Virus record (IMG/VR): IMGVR_UViG_3300020045_004605 | Span: 1-63,680 of that record | DNA from: a virus | Taxonomy: Duplodnaviria > Caudoviricetes | Direction: 5' to 3' (one strand) | Length of the DNA: 63,680 nucleotides | Part shown: positions 22,722 to 54,868 of the stretch, piece after piece | Numbering within the stretch: position 1 is the stretch's first letter | Layout of the letters: the number at the start of each line of letters is the position of its first letter | The notes under the pieces: generated by a model | Databases searched by the model: none | Seen by the model: the letters and a program-made list of their open reading frames with translations, nothing else | Told to the model about the DNA's origin: nothing | Made by a program: the position numbers and the translations under genes

Positions 22722-22795
22722 AGCTTTCGAGAGGATTTGAACCCCTGACATCCTGAGTACAAAACAGGCATTCTAACCAACTGAATTACGAAAGC
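22722..22795 (-). tRNA. tRNA-Thr(UGU)
   Basis: GCTTTCG/CGAAAGC acceptor, ATTC/GAAT D-arm, CCTG-TTT-TGT-ACT-CAGG anticodon arm, GGTTCAAATCC T-arm; TAGATTTG -7 box upstream. Confidence 0.9.
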
Positions 22796-22845: not shown

Positions 22846-23562
22846 TTATATTTTTAAATGCGTTAAATAAGCCTTACACGCTTTATAAACCGCTTCTATT
22901 TGTTTGAAATCTTCTGTACCTCTATCAGTTGAATAAACTTCTTTTGATTTAAAGAAAGCGTCCCACTCTTTAATTGTTTTTTCTTTACATCCTATTTGTA
23001 TTAAATCGCCTTTAATAGTAAATGGCCATTTGCAAAATAAAGGAATATAGGCGGTTTCTTTATTTTCGGCATAAAGCAAGTCGGCAGAACGCAAGTTGGC
23101 ATAACTCAAGTTGGCATAACTCAAGTCGGCAGAACTCAAGTTGGCATAACTCAAGTTGGCATAACTCAAGTTGGCATAACTCAAGTCGGCATAACTCAAG
23201 TCGGCATAAAGCAAGTCGGCATAACTCAAGTTGGCATAACGCAAGTTGGCATAACTCAAGTTGGCATAACTCAAGTCGGCATAAAGCAAGTCGGCATAAC
23301 TCAAGTTGGCATAACTCAAGTTGGCATAACTCAAGTCGGCATAACTCAAGTCGGCATAAAGCAAGTCGGCATAACGCAAGTCGGCAGAACGCAAGTTGGC
23401 ATAACTCAAGTTGGCATAACTCAAGTCGGCAGAAATTTTACCCGATGCTAATTCTTGTTTGATAAACTCTTTTACAGTTTCTTTCATTGTATTATTTTCT
23501 GATTCAAACTCAAAAATAACACTACCCGTAAATCTGTTTTTAATTTGGATTTTAATTTTCAT
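22846..23562 (-). CDS. Pentapeptide repeat protein
   Basis: A(D/N)L(S/R/L)(Y/S) repeats. Confidence 0.95.
   Translation of the reverse strand: MKIKIQIKNRFTGSVIFEFESENNTMKETVKEFIKQELASGKISADLSYANLSYANLRSADLRYADLLYADLSYADLSYANLSYANLSYADLLYADLSYANLSYANLRYANLSYADLLYADLSYADLSYANLSYANLSYANLSSADLSYANLSYANLRSADLLYAENKETAYIPLFCKWPFTIKGDLIQIGCKEKTIKEWDAFFKSKEVYSTDRGTEDFKQIEAVYKACKAYLTHLKI
23066..23433. repeat. 15-bp tandem repeat (~24 copies) encoding pentapeptide units
   Basis: T(T/C)GGCATAACTCAAG variants. Confidence 0.95.
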
Positions 23563-23709: not shown

Positions 23710-24606
23710 ATGAAAAACGGAAACGAAAGATTTAGAATACAGCCGAGCCACGCAAAGTTATTGGGCTTAGAATTAAACCCAAACAACCGTTATAGGTTAG
23801 ATAAAGAAACTAAAGAACAATACTTTAAATTAAGGCGTAAATCGGAATCAGTTAAGCGTTTATTCTTTGATATCGAAACAAGCCCAAATGTTGTTTACAG
23901 TTGGCGAATTGGTTACAACTTAAATATTACACCCGAAAACATCATTAACGAACGTGCTATAATTTGCATCTCTTACAAGTGGGAAAACGAGGAAACTATA
24001 CATACTTTAGCGTGGGATAAAAACAAATGTGATAAGCAAATGTTAATTGACTTTATAAAAGTTGCAAACCAAGCCGATGAAATGATAGCCCACAATGGGG
24101 ATAGGTTTGATATTAAATGGATAAGAACCCGTTGTATTTATCACAGAATACCAATGTTTCCAAATTACAAAACCTTAGATACTTTAAAGAAGGCGAAAAG
24201 CGGGTTTAACTTTAACTCAAATAAGTTAGATTATATTGCTCAATATTTAGGTGTTGGCGCAAAGGTTAAGCATAGTGGTTTTGATATGTGGAAAGGCGTA
24301 ATGAATAACGATAAAAAAGCCTTAGATGAAATGGTTAACTATTGCGAGGGGGATATAATTGTTTTGGAAGATGTTTTTTTAACGATGCAAAACTACATTA
24401 AGCAAAACACTCACGCAGGTGTTTTAAACAACAATTTAAAGTATAGTTGTCCTTGTTGTTCAAATGAACAAATAACTCTTGTTAAAAACAATGTAACGGC
24501 TATGGGTACTATAAAAAGATTAATCGAGTGTAATGATTGTAATTACAATTACGAAATAAGTAACAGTAGCTACATGCTTTATTTAAAATTTAAAAACATT
24601 ATATAA
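23710..24606 (+). CDS. RNase H-like (DnaQ-type) 3'-5' exonuclease with Zn-ribbon
   Basis: FFDIETSP, AHNGDRFDIKW, YCEGDI; CPCC...CNDC; near-identical to 52070-52966. Confidence 0.85.
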   Translation: MKNGNERFRIQPSHAKLLGLELNPNNRYRLDKETKEQYFKLRRKSESVKRLFFDIETSPNVVYSWRIGYNLNITPENIINERAIICISYKWENEETIHTLAWDKNKCDKQMLIDFIKVANQADEMIAHNGDRFDIKWIRTRCIYHRIPMFPNYKTLDTLKKAKSGFNFNSNKLDYIAQYLGVGAKVKHSGFDMWKGVMNNDKKALDEMVNYCEGDIIVLEDVFLTMQNYIKQNTHAGVLNNNLKYSCPCCSNEQITLVKNNVTAMGTIKRLIECNDCNYNYEISNSSYMLYLKFKNII

Positions 24607-27285: not shown

Positions 27286-27939
27286 TCAGAATAGTTGTGT
27301 TTGTTTTGAATTTGATTTTTTTATAATTCCTAAAGCGGTTTCGAAAATTGTTTTACCCGCTTCATAGTCTACTAAATTACGAGCCATTTTTTGTACTGAT
27401 TGAGTGCCTTTGTATTTTCTAAAATCGTAATTATGAAATTCGCACCATTTATTTAATTCATCTTTACTTTCCATAATAGAGTGTTTCCTTTCGTTTAAAT
27501 TATTAGGTAAATTAAAATTTGTCCAATATAAATGACGTCCTATTTTTTTACCATATATTAAAGGCTTGTAATATGGTATTACGTTTTCAACGCAATATTT
27601 GCCATCAAAATAATTCTCTAAAAATAAAACTTCTTCGTATAGTTTTAAGTCTGGATAAATTGGTATAGTTGTATTTTTTCGTGCAAATCTTGCTCTTGAA
27701 TGACTTGGACAAGGAGGTGAACTCCAAATGAAATCAAATCCTTTAAAATGGTCAAGTAAATATTGGTGCGCATCTGCTACAATTACTTTATCTTTCGGAA
27801 ATCGCTCTTGGTACAATCTCGCAGCTTCGGGGTCTAATTCAACTGCGGTTACCCTTAATTCTATCCCCGCTTCTTTTGCTACTTCATCCCACTTATATCT
27901 ATTTCCACCCAAACAGTCGTAAAGGTTTAATACTTTCAT
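27286..27939 (-). CDS. DNA cytosine-C5 methyltransferase-like protein
   Basis: VLNLY..LGG, WSSPPC and ENV motifs. Confidence 0.8.
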   Translation of the reverse strand: MKVLNLYDCLGGNRYKWDEVAKEAGIELRVTAVELDPEAARLYQERFPKDKVIVADAHQYLLDHFKGFDFIWSSPPCPSHSRARFARKNTTIPIYPDLKLYEEVLFLENYFDGKYCVENVIPYYKPLIYGKKIGRHLYWTNFNLPNNLNERKHSIMESKDELNKWCEFHNYDFRKYKGTQSVQKMARNLVDYEAGKTIFETALGIIKKSNSKQTQLF

Positions 27940-28253
27940 ATACTTCTACTTCTAATCGTTAAAAATTCATTGTTTAGTATTTCATCAATCGTATGCTGTG
28001 AAACGCTTAAAATAAAGCTAATCTCCTCGTTGCTCATATACGGGTGCTCTTCTTTAAAAGCGTAAACCAATAGAGGTTTAATAGGTTTTACCAAAGTCTT
28101 TTTCGGTCTTAAGCTGTCCTGAGTTATAAGCGTTTCAGTTTTATGGTCTACTAAAACGCTGTCAGTAATTTTCCTTAATCGGCTTCTTAATGTGCTTCTC
28201 GGTATTGCGTACTCTTGTGATATTTGCATGATTGTTTTCATAATTCTAAACAT
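27936..28253 (-). CDS. HTH-like hypothetical protein flanking cassette array
   Basis: ISQEYAIPRSTLRSRL; orthologue 46192-46497. Confidence 0.7.
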   Translation of the reverse strand: MFRIMKTIMQISQEYAIPRSTLRSRLRKITDSVLVDHKTETLITQDSLRPKKTLVKPIKPLLVYAFKEEHPYMSNEEISFILSVSQHTIDEILNNEFLTIRSRSI

Positions 28254-28299
28254 TTTTGTTTACTGATTTTTTTCATACTTTGTTTACGTTTTTGTTGAT

Positions 28300-28333
28300 T
28301 TAGTATTATGAAATCATACATATCGGTAAGTTA
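28300..28333 (-). other. attI-like terminal site of array A1
   Basis: TAACTTACCGATATGTATGATTTCATA on - strand; related to 46135, 50030, 53889. Confidence 0.6.
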
Positions 28334-28337
28334 TAGC

Positions 28338-28727
28338 TTATGGCTGTATTTCGTTTTCATCAGGAACTAATCTCAAATCAGAATCTAAAAACCACCACTT
28401 TTTTTGATTATAAACCTCATTCATTTTAGAAACAAATTCTTCTATAATATCTGTTTTTTCTTTGAAGCATAATTCCATATCGTGACTGTCATCATCAGGA
28501 TTACCTTCTGTATCGTAATATCTATCAGTAAGCCATTCAATTACTTCTTCGGATGATATTGAAGCGGAATTAGACTGTTTGTTTGCCACGCATAAATAAC
28601 CGTGATGTGGTTCAAAATCTTCTTCATCTAAATTATCAATGTTTTTTAATCCTTGCATTTCTAAATCTTCATATCCACAAAGAGTATAACCTTGTTTTAA
28701 TGCTTCTTTTACTGTGATTGTTTTCAT
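28338..28727 (-). CDS. Cassette ORF, acidic hypothetical protein
   Basis: Bounded by GTTATAGCTTGTGG / CCATAAGCTATAAC. Confidence 0.75.
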   Translation of the reverse strand: MKTITVKEALKQGYTLCGYEDLEMQGLKNIDNLDEEDFEPHHGYLCVANKQSNSASISSEEVIEWLTDRYYDTEGNPDDDSHDMELCFKEKTDIIEEFVSKMNEVYNQKKWWFLDSDLRLVPDENEIQP

Positions 28728-28762
28728 AATTACGTTTTGTTTTAGTTAACCACCACAAGCTA

Positions 28763-28890
28763 TAACAGCAATTTGTGGTAATTTGGGCATTAGTTATTAA
28801 TTTAATTTTCAGTCTGTATTTTTGTAATCTATCTTAACTCCGAAGTTCAGGTATTTTTTACCCCAAACTACCACAAGTTGCAGTGCGTTA
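28763..28890 (-). repeat. attC-like hairpin
   Basis: GCAATTTGTGGTAATTTGGG / CCCAAACTACCACAAGTTGC inside TAAC...GTTA. Confidence 0.8.
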
Positions 28891-28901
28891 TGCCTCAGCT
28901 A

Positions 28902-29075
28902 CTAAGCAACCGCCAAAGAAACTCGTTTCAAATCGTTTTTAACGTCTAACCAAAAATCAATTTTACTTTGATTAAATTCAGGTAAATTTTCATCTAACAT
29001 TGTATCGATGATTGAATTTGCAATTTCAAATCCGTGTTTTTCGAATAACTCTTGTGCTTTTTTCTTTGAGTTCAT
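28902..29075 (-). CDS. Cassette ORF, hypothetical protein
   Basis: Likely start MNSKKKAQELF at 29075; resembles 51769-51987 family. Confidence 0.65.
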   Translation of the reverse strand: MNSKKKAQELFEKHGFEIANSIIDTMLDENLPEFNQSKIDFWLDVKNDLKRVSLAVA

Positions 29076-29102
29076 AATTTGTGGAATAAAAAGCCGAAGG
29101 CA

Positions 29103-29228
29103 TAACAATATATTGTAGCAATTAAGGCTTTGGTTATTAATTTATTTACTGTTTTGTACTTTTAAGTTTGGGTGTTTAATCGAAGCATAAGGTGTACTTT
29201 TTCTTAACTGCTACAATAATGAACGTTA
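29103..29228 (-). repeat. attC-like hairpin
   Basis: TATTGTAGCAATTAAG / CTTAACTGCTACAATA inside TAAC...GTTA. Confidence 0.8.
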
Positions 29229-29299
29229 TAGGCAATAGGGCATACGTTCTTCGTTTCAACATTTGTGGAAGAAAAAAAAGAAAAAAGCCCACCGCGCTT

Positions 29300-30100
29300 T
29301 TAGAACAGTTGTGGTTGCGATATTCTAATATTAAGTCGTTTCTCTGCATATTTACATTGTTCCTCTGATAATTCACTTCCTAAATAATTTCGTTTCTCAA
29401 TGATACAAGCATTGGCAGTTGTGCCAGTTCCCATAAAGCTATCGTAAATCAAATCGTTTTCTTTTGTATAAAGTAACAATAGTTTTCTAACTAATTCAGT
29501 TGAATAAGTTGCTTTATTCAAATCATTACTTCCATCGTTATTTGATGCTTCAATATAGTTGTAAAAAACATCGTAAAAATCTTGTCCTTTATTTGATGTG
29601 GTTGTAACTTTCTTATTTGTGTTAAAGGTTAGGTATTCAGTTTTTCTTACAAACACAAAAACAAATTCACAAATTCGAGTTAGTTTATTTTTACTTGTTG
29701 TGTTTGGCAAAGCGGTTGTTTTTTTCCAACTAATACAATCAGCAACAGTAAATTCAGTTCGTTTTATTATTTCAGCAATCAGCAACCACATTGTTTCAAC
29801 ACTTTCATTTCCGTATGAAATATTATAAAGCACACAACCATCTTTTTCTAAAATAGTATTGTAGGCATCAAATAACTCAATAGTCCAATCAATGTATTCA
29901 TCACTTGATTTTGTGTCTAAATACTTATCGTATCGCTTATCTTGGCTATAAACACGAACACCATTTACTATTTTGTTGCTCCAATACTCAATTCTACCAC
30001 CTGTATTATAAGGCGGTGAAGTTATTACTGCATTTACTTTACCATCTAATCTTTTCATAGTTAGTAAGCAATCTTCGTTATATATTTTATTTATTTCCAT
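29300..30100 (-). CDS. Cassette ORF: DNA N4-C/N6-A methyltransferase (beta class)
   Basis: ITSPPY catalytic and DSFMGTGTT SAM-binding motifs. Confidence 0.9.
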   Translation of the reverse strand: MEINKIYNEDCLLTMKRLDGKVNAVITSPPYNTGGRIEYWSNKIVNGVRVYSQDKRYDKYLDTKSSDEYIDWTIELFDAYNTILEKDGCVLYNISYGNESVETMWLLIAEIIKRTEFTVADCISWKKTTALPNTTSKNKLTRICEFVFVFVRKTEYLTFNTNKKVTTTSNKGQDFYDVFYNYIEASNNDGSNDLNKATYSTELVRKLLLLYTKENDLIYDSFMGTGTTANACIIEKRNYLGSELSEEQCKYAEKRLNIRISQPQLF

Positions 30101-30167
30101 CTCTCTTTTTTTCTTTTTTTTCTTTAGTGCTTCGATTAAACATTCTGCTAAAAATCCCTACTGCCCA

Positions 30168-30215
30168 TAACACGTGCTATACGCCATTAAAACGAGCGTA
30201 TAGCACCATCCGTTA
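30168..30215 (-). repeat. attC-like hairpin (48 bp)
   Basis: GTGCTATACGC / GCGTATAGCAC perfect arms inside TAAC...GTTA. Confidence 0.8.
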
Positions 30216-30238
30216 TAAAACAGTTTCTAAACTGCTTT

Positions 30239-30376
30239 TTAAAACCTAAGTTCATCAGGTTTATACTCAGTTTTGCAGTCTGAAAAGTCAATCCAAGTAT
30301 CTCTAAGTTTTGACTTGTATACTACTACTTTTTTACCGTTTGCAACAACAGTTGCGTTTTTTGTTCCTTGTTCCAT
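30239..30376 (-). CDS. Cassette ORF (45 aa)
   Basis: MEQGTKNATVVANGKKVVVYKSKLRDTWIDF...; below ORF-track cutoff. Confidence 0.65.
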   Translation of the reverse strand: MEQGTKNATVVANGKKVVVYKSKLRDTWIDFSDCKTEYKPDELRF

Positions 30377-30409
30377 AATTTAAAATATTTAGTGTTTAAA
30401 CCGATTTTA

Positions 30410-30529
30410 TAACATCATGTTGTTTTCAGTCTACGGCTTGGGTTATATCCGAAATGTGTCGGCTCACTTGTTTTTAATTTGTTGTGTTCAGTCTTTAATC
30501 ACGCCCGAAAAGCAACACGCAAGGCGTTA
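30410..30529 (-). repeat. attC-like hairpin (first in array A1)
   Basis: CATGTTGTTTTC / GAAAAGCAACACG arms; 5' end identical to 53099. Confidence 0.75.
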
Positions 30530-30544
30530 TAAATAACTTTACTC

Positions 30545-30606
30545 AAATTTAGTAATTATTTCAATACAAAATACATTTAGGCGTTATTTAGAATGTTTAC
30601 AAATAA
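30545..30606 (-). promoter_or_regulatory. Array promoter with Fur-box-like palindrome
   Basis: TAAATTTG -7 box (30545-30552, -) and TTATTTAGAATGTTTACAAATAA (30584-30606). Confidence 0.6.
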
Positions 30607-30829
30607 ACTTATTGTGTGGGTCAAATTCAAAAGAGAAAAAACCGCCCTCGCTATCAAGGTAACGGAAAATATATTCAGTACCGTGTGTTAACCGTTTGTC
30701 AATCCATACAGCGGGTTTATCCAATACCAAACTTACACCGCTTAATCTGAATGGTCTGCCGTTCTTTGATATTTGCGTATCAAAGTGATTTACATCTATA
30801 TCAAACCCTTGTATCGAAATCTTGTTCAT
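30584..30829 (-). CDS. Conserved hypothetical protein upstream of array
   Basis: Orthologue of 43808-44053 (NGRPFRLSG...FEFDP.NKFICKHSK). Confidence 0.75.
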   Translation of the reverse strand: MNKISIQGFDIDVNHFDTQISKNGRPFRLSGVSLVLDKPAVWIDKRLTHGTEYIFRYLDSEGGFFSFEFDPHNKFICKHSK

Positions 30830-44053: not shown

Positions 44054-44107
44054 CGCCTTGATGTTTTTTATATTAAAATAATTACTATTTTTGATTAAAG
44101 TTATTTA

Positions 44108-44237
44108 TAACGTCCTGTGGCTTTGTCGTCGTTGTGGCGAGTGAACCTAAATCTTAACAAATAATAACTAAATTTTAAAATTATGACTGAACTTTCAAAA
44201 AATGCCCAAGTGCCACAATGCGACAAAACCGCTGTTA
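44108..44237 (+). repeat. attC-like hairpin
   Basis: GTGGCTTTGTCGTCGTTGTGGC / GCCACAATGCGACAAAACCGC. Confidence 0.8.
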
Positions 44238-44866
44238 CAAGCAGTCCTTGTTCTGTTGATTGTTTGGATTTAATTAAAGATTTACTCGTTTTTGAATCCG
44301 AAGATGATTTTTATTTCCTTCAAATTCTCCAACGTAAAAAAGAAAATGCAGAATTAGGAAGTAATTCTCGTGTAATTAAAAATTATTACATAAAATCACT
44401 TCAAAACTTATTAGATAGATATGATGAGATAAAAGCATTATGCAATTTGTTTAATGCAAGAGCATCTTTAAGATTGAATAAAAGAAGTTTTGAAAAGGTG
44501 GGTTTTAAGTCTCTTGAAAATATTGCGAATACAATGCAAAACCGAGAGTACAAACATTTAATGAACTCATACGATAGGGCTTGTGGCTTGCTTAATAACG
44601 AGAAAACTAAAAAATGGATAATTGATATTGATAAGGATGAAGTTATATGGTTAGAACAAATTATAAACGCTGTTCAACCTTGTGAGCCAAATGGAAATAA
44701 GATATTAAAGCAATTGCCTACAAAAAGTGGCATCCATTTAATTACAACTCCGTTTAATGTAATGCAATTCAAAGAGAATTTTAAAAAAGAATTAGAAGCC
44801 TACAAAATGGGCGAAATAAATATTGATATTCATAAAGATAATCCTATCAACTTATACGTTCCGTAG
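44183..44866 (+). CDS. Cassette ORF, possible AEP-fold protein
   Basis: WIIDIDKD and TKSGIHLI resemble AEP motifs I and II; starts within hairpin. Confidence 0.6.
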   Translation: MTELSKNAQVPQCDKTAVTSSPCSVDCLDLIKDLLVFESEDDFYFLQILQRKKENAELGSNSRVIKNYYIKSLQNLLDRYDEIKALCNLFNARASLRLNKRSFEKVGFKSLENIANTMQNREYKHLMNSYDRACGLLNNEKTKKWIIDIDKDEVIWLEQIINAVQPCEPNGNKILKQLPTKSGIHLITTPFNVMQFKENFKKELEAYKMGEINIDIHKDNPINLYVP

Positions 44867-44875
44867 GATTGCTTG

Positions 44876-45002
44876 TAACGTTGAGCATAACGCTAGTTAC
44901 GAGCTAAATAAGCCGAAACTTTCAGATTAAAAACCATCTTAAAAGACACAAAACTAAGTGTAAATTCAAGACCGAAGCCGTAATTAGTGTTATGCATTGT
45001 TA
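44876..45002 (+). repeat. attC-like hairpin
   Basis: GCATAACGCTAGTTACG / CGTAATTAGTGTTATGC. Confidence 0.85.
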
Positions 45003-45047
45003 CAAGCTGGTTATTCTAATTAAAACTAATTTTAAATATAAATAAAA

Positions 45048-45683
45048 ATGAATAAGTATTATCAAACATTACAAAACATCCTTGAAAAAGGTAAAACACA
45101 ATTAAATAAAAAAGGTAATATAAAATACCTTATTAACGAAGTTTTATCTATGGATAAAAAAGACTTATTAAAAATATTTGATGAGCATAAAATAGCAAAA
45201 TATAAATTACAAAAAGAGATTGATTTGTATTTTAAAGGCATTACAGAAATTAAAGAATATAACGAGGCAGGTATTTTTTGGTGGGATTATTGCGCTCCTG
45301 CTTTAATAAATAGCTACCCCACTTATTTTAAAAAGTTACCATTCTTAATCGAAAAAATAAATAAAGAAAAAAGACCATCAAAAAATTACGTTCTATTTAT
45401 AGGGGAGACGGGAGTAAAAACAAATCAATTGCCTTGTTTAAGTTTAATACAGTTTCAAATCAGCGATGACGAACTTTATATAACTGTTTATCAAAGGAGT
45501 GCAGATAGTAATTTAGGGTTACCCTCTGATATTTATCAAATATTTTTAATAAGCGAATTAATAGATATACCATTAGCTAATATTACATTTTTTATAGGGA
45601 ATGCACATATTTATGAAAACAATATTGATAATACTTATGAGTTACTAAAAGGGAACAACCCTAAATTTGAGCTCAATGTTTAA
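45048..45683 (+). CDS. Cassette ORF: thymidylate synthase-superfamily enzyme
   Basis: LPC catalytic Cys, YQRSADSNLGLPSD, GNAHIYEN. Confidence 0.85.
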   Translation: MNKYYQTLQNILEKGKTQLNKKGNIKYLINEVLSMDKKDLLKIFDEHKIAKYKLQKEIDLYFKGITEIKEYNEAGIFWWDYCAPALINSYPTYFKKLPFLIEKINKEKRPSKNYVLFIGETGVKTNQLPCLSLIQFQISDDELYITVYQRSADSNLGLPSDIYQIFLISELIDIPLANITFFIGNAHIYENNIDNTYELLKGNNPKFELNV

Positions 45684-45691
45684 CTTGCTTG

Positions 45692-45761
45692 TAACGTTAA
45701 AAATAAACGATGGTGGCGTATGTGGTTAGTAGATTCCGCCACTATTGTTTATTGATTGTTA
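45692..45761 (+). repeat. attC-like hairpin (70 bp)
   Basis: AATAAACGATGGTGGCG / CGCCACTATTGTTTATT. Confidence 0.85.
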
Positions 45762-45813
45762 GCACTTCGCCTTTTTATTTACAAACAAATATTAATTTTT
45801 AAAACAAAATATA

Positions 45814-46125
45814 ATGACAGGAAAATATTTAATTACCACAGATGCGTGGTTTTATGGAGCAGACGGCAAACAATATAAATCCGTTTGGGGAGAAGTTGAA
45901 ATTGTTAGCGATGCAATTTTAGGAATAAAAACAAATGTTAGAAGTTCTAATTGGTTTGCAAAAGTTAGCGGAGAAAAAAATCACGTTATAATAGCTGGTT
46001 GCCAAATCCATTATGCTGTAAAAACAGAAGAAAAACCACATACAGAATTAACTGCCGATTATACAATTGAAGTAGGAGAAGTCAAAAATTATAATCGTCC
46101 GACTTCTATTTATGTTGTTGAGTAA
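45814..46125 (+). CDS. Cassette ORF, hypothetical protein
   Basis: 103 aa bounded by GTTAGCACTTCGCCTT / AAGGTGAGTGCTAAC. Confidence 0.75.
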   Translation: MTGKYLITTDAWFYGADGKQYKSVWGEVEIVSDAILGIKTNVRSSNWFAKVSGEKNHVIIAGCQIHYAVKTEEKPHTELTADYTIEVGEVKNYNRPTSIYVVE

Positions 46126-46134
46126 GGTGAGTGC

Positions 46135-46174
46135 TAACTACCTGATAGGTATGATTTTGTCATACCTATCGGTA
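46135..46174 (+). other. attI-like terminal site of array B1
   Basis: TAACTACCTGATAGGTATGATTTTGTCATACCTATCGGT, identical at 53889. Confidence 0.65.
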
Positions 46175-46191
46175 AAAAATGTAAATAAAGC

Positions 46192-46497
46192 ATGAAAACA
46201 ATCCCACAAATATCAAAAGAGTACGGAATCCCGAGAAGTACTTTAAGAAACCGTTTAAGGAAAATAACAGATAGCGTTTTAGTAGACTATAAAACCGAAA
46301 CGCTTATAACTCAGGATAGCTTAAGACCTAAAAAGACTTTGGTAAAACCTATTAAACCGCTTTTAGTTTACGCATTTAAAGAAGAACATCCATATATGAG
46401 TAACGAAGAGATTAGCTTTATTTTAAGCGTACCACGTCATACGATTGATGAAATACTAAACAATGAATTTTTAACGATTAGAAGTCGCACTATTTAA
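46192..46497 (+). CDS. HTH-like hypothetical protein
   Basis: Orthologue of 27936-28253. Confidence 0.7.
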   Translation: MKTIPQISKEYGIPRSTLRNRLRKITDSVLVDYKTETLITQDSLRPKKTLVKPIKPLLVYAFKEEHPYMSNEEISFILSVPRHTIDEILNNEFLTIRSRTI

Positions 46498-46552
46498 ACT
46501 CATTCTAAATAACGTTAGTTTGTTAAACGTATTGGAATTATTACTAAATTTG
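46490..46552 (+). promoter_or_regulatory. Fur-box-like palindrome plus -7 box
   Basis: CTATTTAAACTCATTCTAAATAA; TAAATTTG at 46545. Confidence 0.6.
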
Positions 46553-48207: not shown

Positions 48208-48323
48208 TAACGTTCTACGGCTACACGTCCGTTGCGTTCAAAGAACTGAGTACTCTCGGCTAAGCTAAAACGTGAAAGTTAAACTAATATAAACAAAATA
48301 GCAATGGCGTGTAACCGTTGTTA
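48208..48323 (+). repeat. attC-like hairpin
   Basis: ACGGCTACACGTCCGTTGC / GCAATGGCGTGTAACCGT. Confidence 0.8.
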
Positions 48324-48339
48324 TAAGCAGTAGCGGATT

Positions 48340-48570
48340 ATGAAAAATTTAAAATTATTTGTCAAATTATTTTTTGCTTTACTATTAGCGGAATTAATTG
48401 TTTTTTTATTTGTAGTATTAATGGTTTCATTTGCTAATTGGCAAATTATAGAATTACCTGAATTTAACGAACAAACTTTTAAAAATATAAGGATAATATT
48501 AGCCTGTAATTTATTTGGAACGATATGTTATTTTCCATTATTGATAATGATGAATAGTCGTCTTAAATAA
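48340..48570 (+). CDS. Cassette ORF, two-TM membrane protein
   Basis: Bounded by GTTATAAGCAGTAGC / GCTATTGCTTATAAC. Confidence 0.7.
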   Translation: MKNLKLFVKLFFALLLAELIVFLFVVLMVSFANWQIIELPEFNEQTFKNIRIILACNLFGTICYFPLLIMMNSRLK

Positions 48571-48591
48571 ATCTAACGTAGCTATTGCTTA

Positions 48592-48689
48592 TAACAGGCG
48601 CGCTTTGCGAAGGCTTTGGAGCTTGCTCAAAGCGTTAGTTAAGGGAAGTGCGCCTGTTAAGGAAAAGGCGTTTGCGCATTTTCCTTAAC
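48592..48689 (+). repeat. Atypical GC-rich hairpin plus ORF-less mini-cassette
   Basis: TAACAGGCGCGCTT/AAGTGCGCCTGTTA then GTTAAGGAAAAGGCG-TTTG-CGCATTTTCCTTAAC. Confidence 0.7.
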
Positions 48690-48813
48690 GTTATCAGGCT
48701 TTGTGTCTGTTGCGTAAAAGAAAACCAAAACATTAATTAAACACTAAACATTACAGATTATGACTAAACATTCAGAAAACACCGAGCCAAGCAATAGCAC
48801 AAAACCTGTGTTA
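48686..48813 (+). repeat. attC-like hairpin
   Basis: CAGGCTTTGTGTCTGTTGC / GCAATAGCACAAAACCTG. Confidence 0.8.
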
Positions 48814-49188
48814 GCAAATCGGCTTTTTAAATTCCGTGCTTGGGTAAAATAACAAAATAGAATGATTAAAGTTTTTGGATTTAACGAACATTTAGTTTTT
48901 GAACAAACTTGGGATTCTCCAAGTATTAAAGAAAATATCTTTGAAATTGAAGATTGCCATATAATGCAGTTTACAGGATCAATTGATAATAAAGGAAATG
49001 AAATTTTTGAAGGTGATATAGTTAGATTGCCTGATAGTTTTTTCCCAAGAGATAGACCAATTATTTTCACAGATTATGGCAGTTGGTACATTGGAAAAAT
49101 TGGAATAGGGTTTGACCAAATGAAAGCTGACGGATTTGTAGAATGCGAAGTTATTGGAAATGTTTTTGAAAATCCTGATTATTTATAA
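48760..49188 (+). pseudogene. Cassette ORF: YopX family protein with in-frame stop
   Basis: ATG 48760...FKFRAWVK-TAA(48850)-QNRMIK...MQFTG...EVIGNVFENP in one frame. Confidence 0.75.
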
Positions 49189-49209
49189 TGTACGTCATAA
49201 GCTGTTTGC

Positions 49210-49337
49210 TAACGTTTCGTGGCTTTATTTAGTAGCGGAATTGTACAAAATAAAGTTTACATAAAAATTAAAGATTACCGACTAAAAACAACTATTAAAT
49301 TAAAAAACAATCCCGCTATTGAATAAAACCATTGTTA
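49210..49337 (+). repeat. attC-like hairpin
   Basis: GTGGCTTTATTTAGTAGCGG / CCGCTATTGAATAAAACCAT. Confidence 0.8.
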
Positions 49338-49369
49338 GCATTAGTGCGGATATTTAAAACTAAAACGTA

Positions 49370-49654
49370 ATGAGAAAAAACATGATTTTAACATCACTAG
49401 CAATGATGATGGCGGCACAAGAACAAGGATTGAGATTTGATAGAGAGGAAGAAATAGAAAGAATGAAATCTAAAAAAGAACCTAAAAAGATAATCCCTAA
49501 CGGTTGCAAAGAATATCATTTTACAAGAAGTGGAAGATTTGACACAACAGAAAATATGTGGAACGATATTGATTATATTTTTACTTGTGTTGCTTCAAAC
49601 GATAAAAATGCGGTTAAGAAGTTCGATAAATTTTCTTATGAGAACAATTTGTAG
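49370..49654 (+). CDS. Cassette ORF, hypothetical protein
   Basis: Bounded by GTTAGCATTAGTGC / GCATTGATGCTAAC. Confidence 0.75.
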   Translation: MRKNMILTSLAMMMAAQEQGLRFDREEEIERMKSKKEPKKIIPNGCKEYHFTRSGRFDTTENMWNDIDYIFTCVASNDKNAVKKFDKFSYENNL

Positions 49655-49663
49655 CATTGATGC

Positions 49664-49752
49664 TAACGTTTTGCGTATATGTGCAATACGCTAATAAACA
49701 TTTGTTATTAATTTAAAGTTTCTTTCCTGCGTATTGCACATATACGCTGTTA
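49664..49752 (+). repeat. attC-like hairpin with perfect 19-bp arms
   Basis: GCGTATATGTGCAATACGC / GCGTATTGCACATATACGC. Confidence 0.85.
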
Positions 49753-49775
49753 TAAGCTGATAAAAATTACAGATT

Positions 49776-50015
49776 ATGGAACGAAAATATTTGATTACAC
49801 AAGAACAGTTAGAGCAAATTGAGCATTACAAAAGAATGTTTGAATTAAATGCGGATTTGGTTAGAGATTTATGTAACTCTGAAAAAGATGATGTTGTTTA
49901 TGGATTTGAGTTAGGCAAGATGCACTCGCATTTAAGAGATTGCTTTATAGAAATGATGGAGTTGGAAGGCGAAATTAGAAACCAAAAAGTTGTTGATGAA
50001 CCGAAAAGCGAGTAA
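49776..50015 (+). CDS. Cassette ORF, hypothetical protein
   Basis: Bounded by GTTATAAGCTGATAAAAATTAC / GTAATTTTTATTTGCTTATAAC. Confidence 0.75.
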   Translation: MERKYLITQEQLEQIEHYKRMFELNADLVRDLCNSEKDDVVYGFELGKMHSHLRDCFIEMMELEGEIRNQKVVDEPKSE

Positions 50016-50029
50016 TTTTTATTTGCTTA

Positions 50030-50065
50030 TAACTATCTAATAAATATGATTTTGTCATACATTAT
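50030..50065 (+). other. attI-like terminal site of array B2
   Basis: TAACTATCTAATAAATATGATTTTGTCATAC. Confidence 0.55.
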
Positions 50066-50094
50066 AAACAAAAAGTAAAATAAAGTATGAAATT

Positions 50095-52069: not shown

Positions 52070-52966
52070 TTATATAATGTTTTTAAATTTTAAATAAAGT
52101 ATGTAACTACTGTTACTTATTTCGTAGTTGTAATTACAATCATCACATTCGATTAATCTTTTTATAGTTCCCATAGCAGTTACATTGTTTTTAACGAGCG
52201 TTATTTGTTCACTTGAACAACAAGGACAACTATATTTAAGATTGTTGTTTAAAACGCCAGCGTGTGTGTTTTGCTTAATGTAGTTTTGCATAGTTAAAAA
52301 AACATCTTCCAAAACAATTATATCCCCCTCACAATAGTTAACCATTTCGCTTAAGGCGGTTTTATCGTTATTCATTACGCCTTTCCACATATCAAAACCA
52401 CTATGCTTAACTTTTGCACCAACACCTAAATATTGCGCAATGTAATCTAATTTATTCGAGTTGAAATTAAACCCGCTTTTAGCTTTCTTTAAAGTATCTA
52501 AGGTTTTATAATTTGGGAACATTGGTATTCTGTGATAAATACAACGGGTTCTTATCCATTTAATATCAAACCTATCCCCATTATGCGCTATCATTTCATC
52601 GGCTTGGTTTGCAACTTTTATAAAGTCTATTAACATTTGCTTATCGCATTTGTTTTTATCCCACGCTAAGGTATGTATTGTTTCCTCGTTTTCCCACTTG
52701 TAAGATATACAAATTATAGCACGTTCATTAATGATGTTTTCGGGCGTGATATTTAAGTTGTAACCAATACGCCAACTATAAACAACGTTAGGGCTTGTTT
52801 CAATGTCAAAGAATAAACGTTTAACTGATTCTGATTTACGCCTTAATTTAACGTACTTTTCTTTGGTTTCTTTGTTTAATCTGTAACGGTTGTTTTTATT
52901 TAATTCTAAGCCTAATAACTTTGCGTGGCTCGGCTGTATTCTAAATCTTTCGTTTCCGTTTTTCAT
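52070..52966 (-). CDS. RNase H-like exonuclease with Zn-ribbon
   Basis: Near-identical to 23710-24606. Confidence 0.85.
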   Translation of the reverse strand: MKNGNERFRIQPSHAKLLGLELNKNNRYRLNKETKEKYVKLRRKSESVKRLFFDIETSPNVVYSWRIGYNLNITPENIINERAIICISYKWENEETIHTLAWDKNKCDKQMLIDFIKVANQADEMIAHNGDRFDIKWIRTRCIYHRIPMFPNYKTLDTLKKAKSGFNFNSNKLDYIAQYLGVGAKVKHSGFDMWKGVMNNDKTALSEMVNYCEGDIIVLEDVFLTMQNYIKQNTHAGVLNNNLKYSCPCCSSEQITLVKNNVTAMGTIKRLIECDDCNYNYEISNSSYILYLKFKNII

Positions 52967-53027: not shown

Positions 53028-53090
53028 TTATTTAGAATGATTTTAAATTAATGATAAATGTAATTAGTATTGAAAATATTATTAAATTTG
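53028..53090 (+). promoter_or_regulatory. Array promoter with Fur-box-like palindrome
   Basis: TTATTTAGAATGATTTTAAATTA; TAAATTTG at 53083. Confidence 0.6.
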
Positions 53091-53181
53091 TGTTTAAATA
53101 ACGCCTTGCGTGTTGCTTTTCGGCTTGGACTGAAACAAAACCACGCTTCGGATATAAATTAACCTTAACAAATATAAAACA

Positions 53182-53451
53182 ATGGATAAATTAAAGACTA
53201 CAGAAAAAGCTGAAAACAACATGCTGTTAGCGACTGTTTATTTCAAGACTTATAATGTAAAATCATTATGGGCGGGAAAATACGCTCATACAAAACACGG
53301 ATTTACAAGTTCAATCTTAACCGCTATTTGGTGGTTTATTACTTGGTCTATTATTGAAGCTATTAGAGTTTTGAGGCTTAATAAATATCATTACGGAAAT
53401 ATATTCGGGATTGGCAAAAAGAAAACCGATTGTTACGGACGTTTACTATAA
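53182..53451 (+). CDS. Cassette ORF, membrane-associated hypothetical protein
   Basis: Starts inside hairpin loop. Confidence 0.65.
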   Translation: MDKLKTTEKAENNMLLATVYFKTYNVKSLWAGKYAHTKHGFTSSILTAIWWFITWSIIEAIRVLRLNKYHYGNIFGIGKKKTDCYGRLL

Positions 53452-53458
53452 TAGTTTA

Positions 53459-53583
53459 TAACGTTTCGCTTGTATGGTTAGTGCGGAAAAATACGCCGAA
53501 ACATTTCATATATAACTGACCACACAAGTACAAAATCATATTAAAATTTAAAACTAATACCGCATTAATTATACAAGCTGTTA
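53459..53583 (+). repeat. attC-like hairpin
   Basis: GCTTGTATGGTTAGTGCGG / CCGCATTAATTATACAAGC. Confidence 0.85.
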
Positions 53584-53615
53584 GCATTAGTGCGGTTCTT
53601 AAAACTAAAATTATT

Positions 53616-53873
53616 ATGCAAAATTACATTAGATTATTAAGCTACGAAAATGCTGAAAAAGTAATAAAATTTGTTAATTCTTTAAATAACTACGATGATT
53701 ACGCTTGTATAACTAGTGGTGGTGTTAGTTTGAAATCAACTGAAGAAAATCATCCTAAAATATTAGATTATATAAAATCATTAAATGTTAGGTTTGAATT
53801 AACTTCAAAACATCCCGAAGCAGTAAATAAAGAAATCGTTTCTAATTTACGAAATGCTGGTATTATAGAATAA
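53616..53873 (+). CDS. Cassette ORF, hypothetical protein
   Basis: Same cassette ends as 49370-49654. Confidence 0.75.
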   Translation: MQNYIRLLSYENAEKVIKFVNSLNNYDDYACITSGGVSLKSTEENHPKILDYIKSLNVRFELTSKHPEAVNKEIVSNLRNAGIIE

Positions 53874-53949
53874 ACGTAGCATTGATGCTAACTACCTGAT
53901 AGGTATGATTTTGTCATACCTATCGGTTTTTCTATCATACATTATCTAC

Positions 53950-53972: not shown

Positions 53973-54310
53973 CAGTTTAATGTTGTGGGAATGAAAAAAA
54001 GGCGTAATTTAGCCTTAACAACAGAAATGATTTTCGTTAGGGCTAAGCGAAAATAAAAAATGGTATAGGCGCAATAACTTCCAATTTCAATAGAACGCAT
54101 TAACCCTCTTTAATCGGAGGGTTTTTAAAAAGTTTTTTCATGATGTTTGGTTATAGTTGAGAAACCCCGATTTAATAGTCGGGGTTTTTTGTTGTAACAT
54201 AGACATCGTGTCTATGTTCATGTCTATGTTTTAATTTTCCAACAATTATATTAAAAATGTTTGTTATTGCCATTATTTATTCGTATATTTAGTTTTTAAT
54301 TATTAGATAT

Positions 54311-54868
54311 ATGACAACAAATCTTATTTACGCCCTTAGAGATTCAAGAAATGACGCTTATTTTTATGTAGGTAAAACTACTGTAGGTATTAAAAGACCC
54401 TTAAAACATTTAACAAAATCACACAATAAAGAAGTAAACAACCATGTTAAGCTTTTAAAAGATTTAGGGCATAAAACATTCGTTGATATTTTAGAGGAAA
54501 ACATAGATTTAAATTCCCTTTGCGAAAGAGAAAAACATTGGATAAATTACTATTCTGAAATATATGATTTATGCAATAAAAAAGATTTTTATAGCGAAAG
54601 GGAAAATAGCGTTATTGATATTCAAAACATAGATACTGAAGAAACAAATAAAATACTATTTCTATTAAAAAACATACCTAAAATAGTTTCTAATAAACGA
54701 AAATATTTATCAATAACTCAATCTAATTTAGCTTCTGAAAGTGGTTTAAATAGAAGCACAATAACTCAAATAGAAAAAGGACAAACTATAACAATATCGT
54801 CTTTAATAAAAGTTTTAGAGGTTTTATCTAATAGTGAAATTAAAAACGAAAAAGTTAGATTAAAATGA
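54311..54868 (+). CDS. GIY-YIG nuclease domain + XRE HTH protein
   Basis: LIYAL...FYVGKT...R...H, EREKHWI; ITQSNLASESGLNRSTITQIEKG. Confidence 0.75.
   Translation: MTTNLIYALRDSRNDAYFYVGKTTVGIKRPLKHLTKSHNKEVNNHVKLLKDLGHKTFVDILEENIDLNSLCEREKHWINYYSEIYDLCNKKDFYSERENSVIDIQNIDTEETNKILFLLKNIPKIVSNKRKYLSITQSNLASESGLNRSTITQIEKGQTITISSLIKVLEVLSNSEIKNEKVRLK

Follow-up and report, generated by a model that had tools for sequence, protein, structure and literature searches.

A candidate attI-like anchor site at the promoter-distal end of integrase-less cassette arrays in a virus record related to Flavobacterium phages

Integrons, the textbook system of gene capture, are defined by an integrase, an attI site, and cassettes bounded by attC sites. 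The 63,680-bp IMG/VR virus record IMGVR_UViG_3300020045_004605, which is analyzed here as a whole and called the window below (G+C 28-38%), carries arrays of hairpin-bounded gene cassettes, and its structural genes show ca. 27-60% amino acid identity to cultured Flavobacterium phages of the genus Lillamyvirus. Where each of these arrays stops, a related sequence motif stands in place of a further cassette hairpin, e.g., at positions 46135-46174. This raises the question of whether the motif is the fixed partner at which cassettes are docked, comparable to attI, or something else such as a regulatory element, a degenerate hairpin, or a relic of duplication. We consider it an even call that the motif is an attI-like anchor site at the promoter-distal end of integron-like arrays that lack an integrase.

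Cassette arrays and the motif at their ends

A script that chains hairpins (TAAC plus stem ... stem plus GTTA) to the complementary flank beyond each gene found exactly four chains in the window, with the link from 45692 to 46135 read by eye across a 1-nt bulge:

44108-46138, plus strand: array A, three cassettes (227-aa protein, thymidylate-synthase-like protein, 103-aa protein), ending at motif copy 1
48208-50033, plus strand: array B, five chained hairpin joints, ending at motif copy 3
53099-53892, plus strand: array C, two cassettes, ending at motif copy 2
28330-30529, minus strand: array D, four cassettes including an N6/N4 DNA methylase (29300-30100), ending at motif copy 4

At all four array ends the chaining leads to TAAC/T (the slash marks the joint here and below) followed by the motif and not by a hairpin, with TAAC at 46135-46138, 53889-53892, and 50030-50033 on the plus strand and at 28333-28330 on the minus strand. 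A sequence-only reading of this DNA had claimed that every array ends in TAAC-T and a related motif without the closing GTTA, and this proved right for 4 of 4 chains, with coordinates and letters exact. The four copies are built as follows:

46135-46174, plus strand: motif copy 1, TAAC, spacer TACCTG (46139-44), box ATAGGTATGA (46145-54), TTTTG (46155-59), inverted box TCATACCTAT (46160-69), CGGTA
53889-53928, plus strand: motif copy 2, same as copy 1 over 42 nt, then TTTTTCT and 380 nt without a gene
50030-50066, plus strand: motif copy 3, TAAC TATCTA ATAAATATGA TTTTG TCATACATTAT, no stable hairpin
28297-28333, minus strand: motif copy 4, TAAC TTACCG ATATGTATGA TTTCATAATAC, no stable hairpin

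Copies 1 and 2 share 42 identical nt (TGCTAAC..CGGT; 46132-46173 and 53886-53927) between unrelated flanks (blastn: 46 nt, E 8e-15), which bears out the earlier claim that the copy at 46135 recurs identically at 53889. The 15-mer ATGATTTTGTCATAC occurs exactly three times, and the minus-strand copy differs from it by 3 mismatches. Two further copies were found outside the window, in the viral contig L059 and the bacterial metagenome contig L203 described below, and an nhmmer profile built from all six finds only the four array ends in the window (E 1e-10 to 3e-17), where the window copies were themselves part of the profile; palindromic reverse matches rank after them, and the next match has E 0.33. 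The motif is thus not spread through the window away from arrays. All six copies follow the register AAC/T N5 ATA NN TATGA N5 nCATAC, and the distance from TAAC to the first base of the motif is constant in 5 of 5 phage copies.

The motif is conserved by sequence rather than by fold. Pairwise identity averages 74% among motif copies (64-97%) compared to 56% among the first 36 nt of 14 hairpins (max 83%), and hairpins match the motif at 51% on average. The contrast between a conserved motif and diverse hairpins that the sequence-only reading had drawn is therefore real but only moderate. Extra direct box copies (TCATACATTAT, GTCATACATATAC) lie near the palindrome in copy 2 (53920-53945) and in L203 (4108-4123); they may resemble the accessory direct repeats of attI1.

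Within the arrays, a cassette consists of an imperfect hairpin, GTTA-Y, a gene, and Y'-TAAC. The 14 hairpins counted by script in the window (..TAAC ... GTTA.., 48-131 nt) share a design of X-TAAC, ca. 6 unpaired nt (mostly GTTnnG), a stem-loop, 2-4 nt, and GTTA-Y, and they fit the integron core consensus (RYYYAAC ... GTTRRRY) strictly only in its AAC/GTT part. The 12 nt after GTTA pair across the gene with the 12 nt ending in the next TAAC (11-12 of 12 pairs, 12 links), so that the outer boxes of each hairpin are hybrids of two neighboring cassettes, as in integron arrays. Directly behind TAAC, 13 of the 14 internal joints have G and one has A; all four terminal joints have T. Rfam 15 covariance models run over the whole window (E up to 1) gave one tRNA and three chance-level matches, but no match to hairpins or motif.

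Of the two strands, the coding one gives the better fold in 13 of the 14 hairpins of the window and in 12 of the 15 hairpins of the cultured Lillamyvirus sniff9-1 (25 of 29 together). Nearly all flank boxes read ATTG-NNNN-TAAC and GTTA-NNNN-CAGT; this sets a T.G wobble at a constant distance of 10-11 nt from the joint (window arrays; locus L202, 3500-11126), which may be a recognition feature. Because this one wobble (ATT../..AGT) is fixed in nearly all flank pairs, it weakens any argument from G.T wobbles, and the strand assignment is based on fold energies only.

In several cassettes, the first hairpin carries the start codon in its loop while its 3' arm and GTTA-Y are coding (44108-44242, 48686-48815, 53099-53231; L202 8936-9065), so that unrelated genes share a hairpin-encoded N-terminal peptide, e.g., 21 aa at 86% identity between window position 44183 and sniff9-1. 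Several small open reading frames (ORFs) annotated in the cultured phages (L202, L214-L219), e.g., sniff9-1 gp024, gp015, and gp010, sit within hairpins and are probably not genes. At 46512-46520, 27270-27262 (minus strand), and L202 3233-3243, an inverse core abuts a core with no hairpin between them (..AAATAAC/GTTAG.. or ..AAATAAC/GTTGC..); these joints sit just 5' of consensus promoters and may be scars or minimal sites. At the other end of the arrays lies one further feature:

44054-44111, plus strand: promoter-side boundary of array A, with a putative -7 box TATTTTTG of Bacteroidetes type, then ..AAAGTTATTTATAAC/G

Boundaries homologous to this one are found at 30583-30526 (minus strand) and, more weakly, at 53060-53102.

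Cassette exchange at terminal joints

Whether the motif belongs to the last cassette or to the site that receives it can be read from the cassette next to copy 1:

45696-46138, plus strand: cassette adjoining motif copy 1, consisting of a hairpin, the 103-aa gene, and ..GTGCTAAC

The 103-aa gene has relatives in 33 viral loci. The viral contig L221 matches window positions 45685-46138 over 455 nt at 98.5% identity between unrelated flanks, and this identity begins right after a TAAC and stops at TGCTAAC. There, L221 continues with an ordinary hairpin (/GGGTTCGGGC..GTTAGGCGAAGG), whereas the window continues with the motif. Since the same cassette is followed by an ordinary hairpin in L221, the motif is not part of the cassette, and TAAC/T is a true cassette boundary. 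The 443-nt cassette that window and L221 have in common at 98.5% is a discrete mobile unit. When two of the three cassettes of array A were compared, the 103-aa cassette had the closer outside relative (99% amino acid identity versus 91% for the thymidylate-synthase-like one), though this is a single observation.

Cultured relatives of the genus Lillamyvirus carry arrays of the same kind, and here cassettes can be followed between nearly identical genomes. The array of sniff9-1 comprises 15 mapped cassettes of window design and ends in ..GCTTATAAC/TACAATATTACATGAT.., a terminal sequence that has only TAAC/TA and ATGAT ca. 15 nt further on in common with the window motif. Nine strains with backbones that are 99.5-100% identical differ by whole cassettes. 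In lillamy9-1, a 439-nt cassette X sits at an internal joint (..ACATAAC/X..GTTATAAC/GTTAAAG) and the terminal joint is empty (..GCTTATAAC/TACAATATT), while in lillamy9-7 the internal joint is closed precisely (..ACATAAC/GTTAAAG..) and X lies between ..GCTTATAAC/ and /TACAATATT.. at the terminal joint. The joints that exchange X have only 5-7 nt in common (ATAAC / TTATAAC), which argues for an exchange that is site-specific and not homologous. Four strains have X at the internal place (lillamy9-1, lillamy9-6, morran9-1, and sniff9-1) and two at the terminal one (lillamy9-3 and lillamy9-7), and it is missing from 3 of the 9 strains. With four of six carriers showing the internal place, the terminal one is taken as derived, i.e., X was excised and then re-inserted at the promoter-distal end. 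The terminal joint of Lillamyvirus is recombination-active.

A wider comparison covered 34 distinct genomes with the same backbone after the terminal joint (at least 97%), in which configurations were assigned by alignment extents. At least 9 configurations adjoin the terminal joint, compared to 2 at the promoter end, where all 34 genomes carry cassettes A and B and where a 469-nt cassette at the very first joint is found in 27 and missing in 7. Before the terminal joint, the genomes are distributed as follows:

O last before the terminal joint: 10 genomes
O and X before the terminal joint: 2 genomes
O missing before the terminal joint: 10 genomes
filifjonk type before the terminal joint: 1 genome
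snusmum9-1 type before the terminal joint: 1 genome
tooticki type before the terminal joint: 2 genomes
hattifnatt type before the terminal joint: 1 genome
hemulen / stinky type before the terminal joint: 4 genomes
snusmum6 type before the terminal joint: 3 genomes

Copies outside the window, alternatives, and the search for a recombinase

The viral contig L059 carries a one-cassette array that ends in TAAC/T and the motif. It was the only true copy among 85 loci returned by a scan of IMG/VR with the 16-mer core, and flank inspection recognized none among the 114 matches listed for a degenerate left-arm pattern (at least 114 loci). A metagenome scan returned a single locus, L203. Allowing up to 6 mismatches over 507 kb of collected loci, the only real copies added were those in L059 and L203, with the remaining rows being reverse reads of palindromes, loci fetched by the core itself (L204-L213, Firmicutes and others), and coding DNA at 6 mismatches. 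A genome scan with the 19-nt palindrome gave 10 loci in unrelated phyla, which is about as many as expected by a rough estimate, includes several ordinary terminators, and is evidence neither way. In Firmicutes (L204, L205, L209, L210), the 19-nt core GGTATGATTTTGTCATACC tops longer palindromes with T runs; these ordinary terminators match by chance and are a caution for pattern scans with this core.

L203 is a bacterial metagenome contig of 97 kb, of which 10 kb were examined, with an identical 25-nt palindrome between a G+C-rich glycosyltransferase gene and an A+T-rich island. The sequence GTTGGCTGCAAGGC lies 6 nt past the palindrome, and its partner GCCCAGCAGCCAAC follows 2.8 kb on, after methylase and ATPase genes, with a hairpin and GTTGTGC behind it. 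Taken from the opposite strand, the sequence is ..GCAGCCAAC/TCCGTT/ATAGGTATGA.., i.e., the phage register of AAC/T, 5 nt, and box. The cassette genes of L203 point away from the palindrome, and its one clear hairpin has a spacer asymmetry opposite to that of the phage coding strand. By this layout, the L203 palindrome occupies the classical attI position. In the 4 kb 5' of it, a scan of the ORFs other than 563-1654 showed GT2, AraC-type, and further genes but no integrase. The idea that the motif travels with a methylase gene was rejected, as the C5 methylases of L203 and the window are unrelated. L200 and L201, which are related to the window through the helicase (82% amino acid identity), have no array at the corresponding place.

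The window itself has a complication that must be considered for any count of motif copies. By self-comparison, its segment 21213-30763 is an inverted, diverged homologue of 56358-43874 (78-100% nucleotide identity, mostly 85-92%), and the record contains two genes each for an exonuclease (23710-24606, plus strand; 52070-52966, minus strand) and a helicase, plus two primase genes that are not homologous to each other. It is classified as linear without end repeats. Although CheckV puts its completeness at 100%, two related ca. 38-kb phages may have been assembled into it, as a chimera or head to head, in which case it would not be one genome. One could hence imagine that the motif has no function of its own and is a short repeat that survived by chance after segmental duplication or in such a chimera, as the inverted homology of the 21.2-30.8 kb and 56.4-43.9 kb regions, the doubled gene sets, and the linear record without end repeats would allow. 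We regard this as very improbable, given that the other arm lacks counterparts of copies 2 and 3, whose flanks are unrelated, that 42 nt are identical between unrelated flanks, and that L059 and L203 hold independent copies.

The arms are informative in another way. Arrays A and D lie at homologous places, with promoter sides that are 86% alike up to ..TTATTTATAAC (30522-30763 versus 44116-43874) and with helix-turn-helix (HTH) genes after motif copies 1 and 4 that share 90% nucleotide identity, whereas the interiors, three cassettes in A versus four in D, have none in common. Conserved ends around a fully replaced interior would be the pattern of a capture platform, though it is silent on which end is active. 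The counterpart of the array C location in the other arm (23626 to 22855, minus strand) holds a pentapeptide-repeat gene and neither array nor motif, and the motif therefore goes with the array and not with the backbone. This gene (22846-23562, minus strand) encodes a 238-aa protein and has internal 15-nt periodic repeats. Nearby, a tRNA gene (22722-22795, minus strand; Rfam 63 bits) faces a different sequence at its counterpart place in the other arm (ca. 54010-54130), and a GIY-YIG and HTH_3 protein, probably a homing endonuclease, is encoded at 54311-54868, 400 nt 3' of motif copy 2 and beyond two strong terminators.

What follows the motif bears on a further alternative, i.e., that it is a regulatory element of the backbone (an operator, a promoter for a phage-specific factor, or a 5' leader) which arrays merely abut since the first cassette landed at its TAAC, with copies kept alike by arm duplication and gene conversion. 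Downstream of copy 1, an A-rich leader AAAAATGTAAATAAAGC (46175-46191, plus strand) precedes the ATG of a 101-aa HTH protein (46192-46497, plus strand); the leader recurs at copies 3 and 4 as AAAAAnGTAAAnAAAGnATGA, and these three copies have the A-rich leader and an ATG ca. 20-40 nt 3' of the motif, with a start codon within ca. 20-85 nt after 4 of 5 phage copies. Copies 1 and 4 precede paralogous HTH genes (a 101/105-aa pair; 27936-28253, minus strand, after copy 4) in homologous arms, and TATGA-N5-TCATA would be a typical dyad for a dimeric HTH protein. The HTH protein has only 2 relatives in a large protein collection, and none were found in viral contigs. Across contexts, the motif is followed by the two HTH paralogues, a 66-aa ORF, no gene at all, small ORFs (L059), or a C5 methylase gene (L203). 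This lack of kinship in four contexts makes a gene-specific operator unlikely, copy 2 has no gene for 380 nt, and the dyad is broken in copies 3, 4, and L059.

A promoter function fares similarly. Bacteroidetes promoters have a -33 TTTG and a -7 TAnnTTTG box. The consensus TTTG-N16-22-TAnnTTTG, searched as a regular expression, occurs at 17 sites in the window, including directly 5' of 37719 and 46573, and none of these housekeeping promoters is at a motif copy. Three of the four window copies contain a -7-like TGATTTTG one mismatch from this box, but there is no -33 TTTG at the right distance, and copy 4 lacks the -7-like box. A sigma-70 scan was uninformative with 61 sites versus 60.8 expected. 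A backbone regulatory element would also leave unexplained why 5 of 5 phage copies start at the same base after TAAC and why it lies 6 nt from a cassette boundary in L203, and there is no motif at the place homologous to array C. We thus hold this explanation to be unlikely, if the most probable of the alternatives.

The fold of the motif raises the possibility that it is a truncated or degenerate cassette hairpin, half of an attC-like site without the closing GTTA, that caps the array without being a preferred target and perhaps acts as a weak terminator or an RNA-stabilizing 3' hairpin. Its layout is indeed that of the 5' half of ordinary hairpins (TAAC, 6 nt, stem). The 36 nt after TAAC of copy 1 (46139-46174) fold as single-stranded DNA into a hairpin of 15 bp in which a single T bulges out (-12 kcal/mol, z -6.5), the same holds for copy 2 (z -8.6), and the range for copies 1, 2, and L203 is z -5.7 to -8.6. 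Copy 2 alone among the window copies is flagged as terminator-like (53896-53926; 14 pairs, then TTTTTCT), and attC sites are described as weak terminators by Qi et al. 2023 (PMC9892861). However, a T run follows just one window copy out of four, copy 1 has A6 behind it, and copies 3 and 4 lack a fold, so that the motif as such is not an intrinsic terminator, and 3 of 6 copies do not fold. One specific sequence recurs at array ends (three window contexts, L059, and a bacterium) while hairpins are diverse and match it at only 51%, and the terminal joint of Lillamyvirus is recombination-active. A worn-down hairpin hence seems improbable to us.

If cassettes enter at an anchor site, which enzyme moves them? 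No tyrosine recombinase (PF00589) was found in the window, the L059 phage, or sniff9-1 (controls positive in 14 of 14 genomes), and the same is true in these three phages for serine recombinases, Y1 HUH transposases, and rve integrases (PF00239, PF01797, PF00665), with control genomes positive for each family searched. HUH/Y1, serine, or DDE enzymes of the phages were therefore rejected as candidates. The only protein common to all three array-bearing phages is a DUF3127 protein. The layout of a 12-bp arm ending in TAAC, the crossover, ca. 6 unpaired nt, and a second duplex would suit a tyrosine recombinase acting at the border of arm and spacer. Precedent comes from an attC of Polaribacter phage P12002L, which IntI1 recombined into attI1 in E. 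coli according to Qi et al. (2023; PMC9892861); the bottom strands of such phage sites were more active than the top strands, and the top strand of the tested P12002L site gave no recombinants. Our comparison found hairpins of window design around methylase genes in P12002L, which by their position we take to be the sites tested there, and an array end GTGCCTAAC/AACGGATAAAAC.

The attI-like reading can now be weighed. In its favor are an exact crossover, the conservation of the motif by sequence, the attI position in L203, and the relocation of X, so that the sequence-only proposal of a primary insertion site keeps these supports; it lacks a recombinase, universality, and an insertion seen at the motif. 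Among the relatives, lillamy9-1 has an empty terminal joint. The suggestion that the newest cassettes are promoter-distal agrees with the derived place of X, and the expectation that cassettes next to the site vary most agrees with the configurations at the terminal end of Lillamyvirus, although at a different terminal sequence.

Several observations weigh against this reading. At the motif itself, neither an empty site nor polymorphism was found, and no insertion there has been seen. The motif is lineage-specific, with the array of L221 ending in TAAC/TAATCAATAACAGC, that of P12002L in TAAC/AACGGATAAAAC, and those of Lillamyvirus in TAAC/TACAATATTACATGAT, and it is rare outside the window, with one further viral contig (L059) and one metagenome contig (L203); a blastn search with the motif in 50,697 records of cultured phages gave chance-level matches only (E at least 2). 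In Lillamyvirus, cassette variation is also seen at internal joints and at the first joint, next to the promoter. Copy 1 is the positional homologue of copy 4 (28333, minus strand) in the duplicated arms, so that the four window copies are not four independent loci, and these two copies are only 69% alike, which is less than the adjoining HTH genes (90%). Only 3 of the 6 copies retain the hairpin (z against shuffles for the others: copy 3 -0.24, copy 4 -2.2, L059 -0.75). The array in L203 is backed by only two clear flank pairs and two hairpins in the 10 kb examined, and its palindrome has the loop inverted with respect to the crossover. Relative to flanking genes, all six copies point the same way, which fits a transcription-linked role too, and the DNA just 5' of the next gene may have such a generic regulatory role. 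To this comes the failure to find any of the four recombinase families named above in the phages.

If the motif is an anchor site, its use could be pictured as follows. Since Y pairs with Y', a cassette excised as a circle would bear a single long hairpin of attC type. The crossover falls within ..ATAAC or immediately behind it, and the TAAC of the last cassette is joined directly to T, 5 nt, and the box ATAGGTATGA. An enzyme of the tyrosine recombinase type, either host-encoded or an unrecognized phage protein, would bind two double-stranded elements, the Y'-TAAC arm and the box at a distance of 6 nt, and swap one strand with the folded single-stranded hairpin of a cassette, using the better-folding coding strand. 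The product would be TAAC/cassette..TAAC/motif, i.e., new or reshuffled cassettes would enter beside the motif and far from the array promoter. In integron terms, the genes would be on the "bottom" strand and point towards the site.

Relation to known gene-capture systems

Several known systems are comparable to these arrays. In IS200/IS605 and REP/RAYT elements, an HUH Y1 enzyme cuts a fixed tetranucleotide beside a hairpin. The arrays resemble these in having TAAC as a fixed tetranucleotide joint at the single-stranded foot of a hairpin, but the Y1 transposase (PF01797) is absent from 3 of 3 array-bearing phages and the cargo consists of single genes in ordered arrays. Xer/dif integration of the CTX-phi (IMEX) type needs no phage integrase; its substrate, a forked hairpin that imitates a site with two arms around an unpaired center, is recombined by a tyrosine recombinase of the host. 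The layout described here, with a 12-bp arm, TAAC/, an unpaired 6-nt stretch, and a stem, would fit this arrangement, although Xer/dif integrates whole phages into the chromosome and not cassettes into arrays.

PeSL cassettes may act via homology between repeated motifs of ca. 50-70 bp. As two studies on T4-type phages describe, these conserved intergenic promoter/stem-loop motifs flank small accessory genes, like the hairpins in the window, and mediate insertion, deletion, and replacement between close relatives (PMC2839356, PMC4122927). Unlike them, the exchange partners in Lillamyvirus have only 5-7 nt in common, and the hairpins are diverse.

Integron attI sites are a further close comparison. 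Like attI, the motif sits at the array boundary exactly at the crossover (G/TTRRRY, which is AA/C on the other strand; PMC9892861) and is conserved by sequence, whereas cassette sites are conserved by fold; the equivalent terminal joint in Lillamyvirus received an excised cassette; and the L203 genes point away from the motif as in integrons. Unlike attI, no intI adjoins the motif or was found in the phage, and the promoter of phage arrays is at the far end with genes pointing towards the motif, the classical geometry being seen only in L203. The palindromic box of the motif has no known counterpart.

Integrase-less cassette arrays are a known kind in phages. Much like the arrays in the window, the CALINs of virulent phages that Qi et al. 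reported (2023; PMC9892861) occur in Flavobacteriia phages, have hairpin-bounded cassettes with many DNA methylases, and lack an integrase. The P12002L hairpins have the same layout of ..AAC, 5-6 nt, stem ... stem, 2-3 nt, and GTT.., with complementary flanks. That paper predicts two to a few attC sites per phage and reports no attI-like end site for these virulent phages (PMC9892861), unlike the up to 15 mapped cassettes (sniff9-1), the defined terminal joint, and the natural cassette relocation described here. Complete integrons are rare in Bacteroidetes, with one named in the phylum (IntegronFinder 2 preprint). The paper on the Baltic phage isolates links methylase differences to plating efficiency on different hosts, and its main text contains neither "hairpin" nor "cassette" nor "integrase" (PMC7077304). 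In a full-text literature search, no paper was found that treats Flavobacterium phage together with hairpin, and no description of an array end site was found in our literature searches. As far as these searches reach, three features thus appear to be new: the anchor site, the reversed polarity, and the relocation of a cassette in nature.

We tentatively extend the proposal, with a confidence that falls a little short of even, to the view that Flavobacteriia phages and some Bacteroidota chromosomes run an integrase-less form of gene capture. Circles with an attC-like hairpin would be re-inserted at a promoter-distal, sequence-specific anchor by a host recombinase or one of an unrecognized family; the cassettes would largely encode anti-restriction DNA methylases; and the motif at 46135 would be the anchor of one lineage, common to phage and bacterial arrays.

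What can be said of these virulent-type Bacteroidetes phages is that they carry long and actively reshuffled cassette arrays with no integrase found, an end site in the position of attI, and reversed gene polarity. If the motif is indeed the anchor, it would provide a concrete sequence for fishing out the missing recombinase, explain how these phages swap methylase genes, and mean that phage and bacterial arrays share one docking site.

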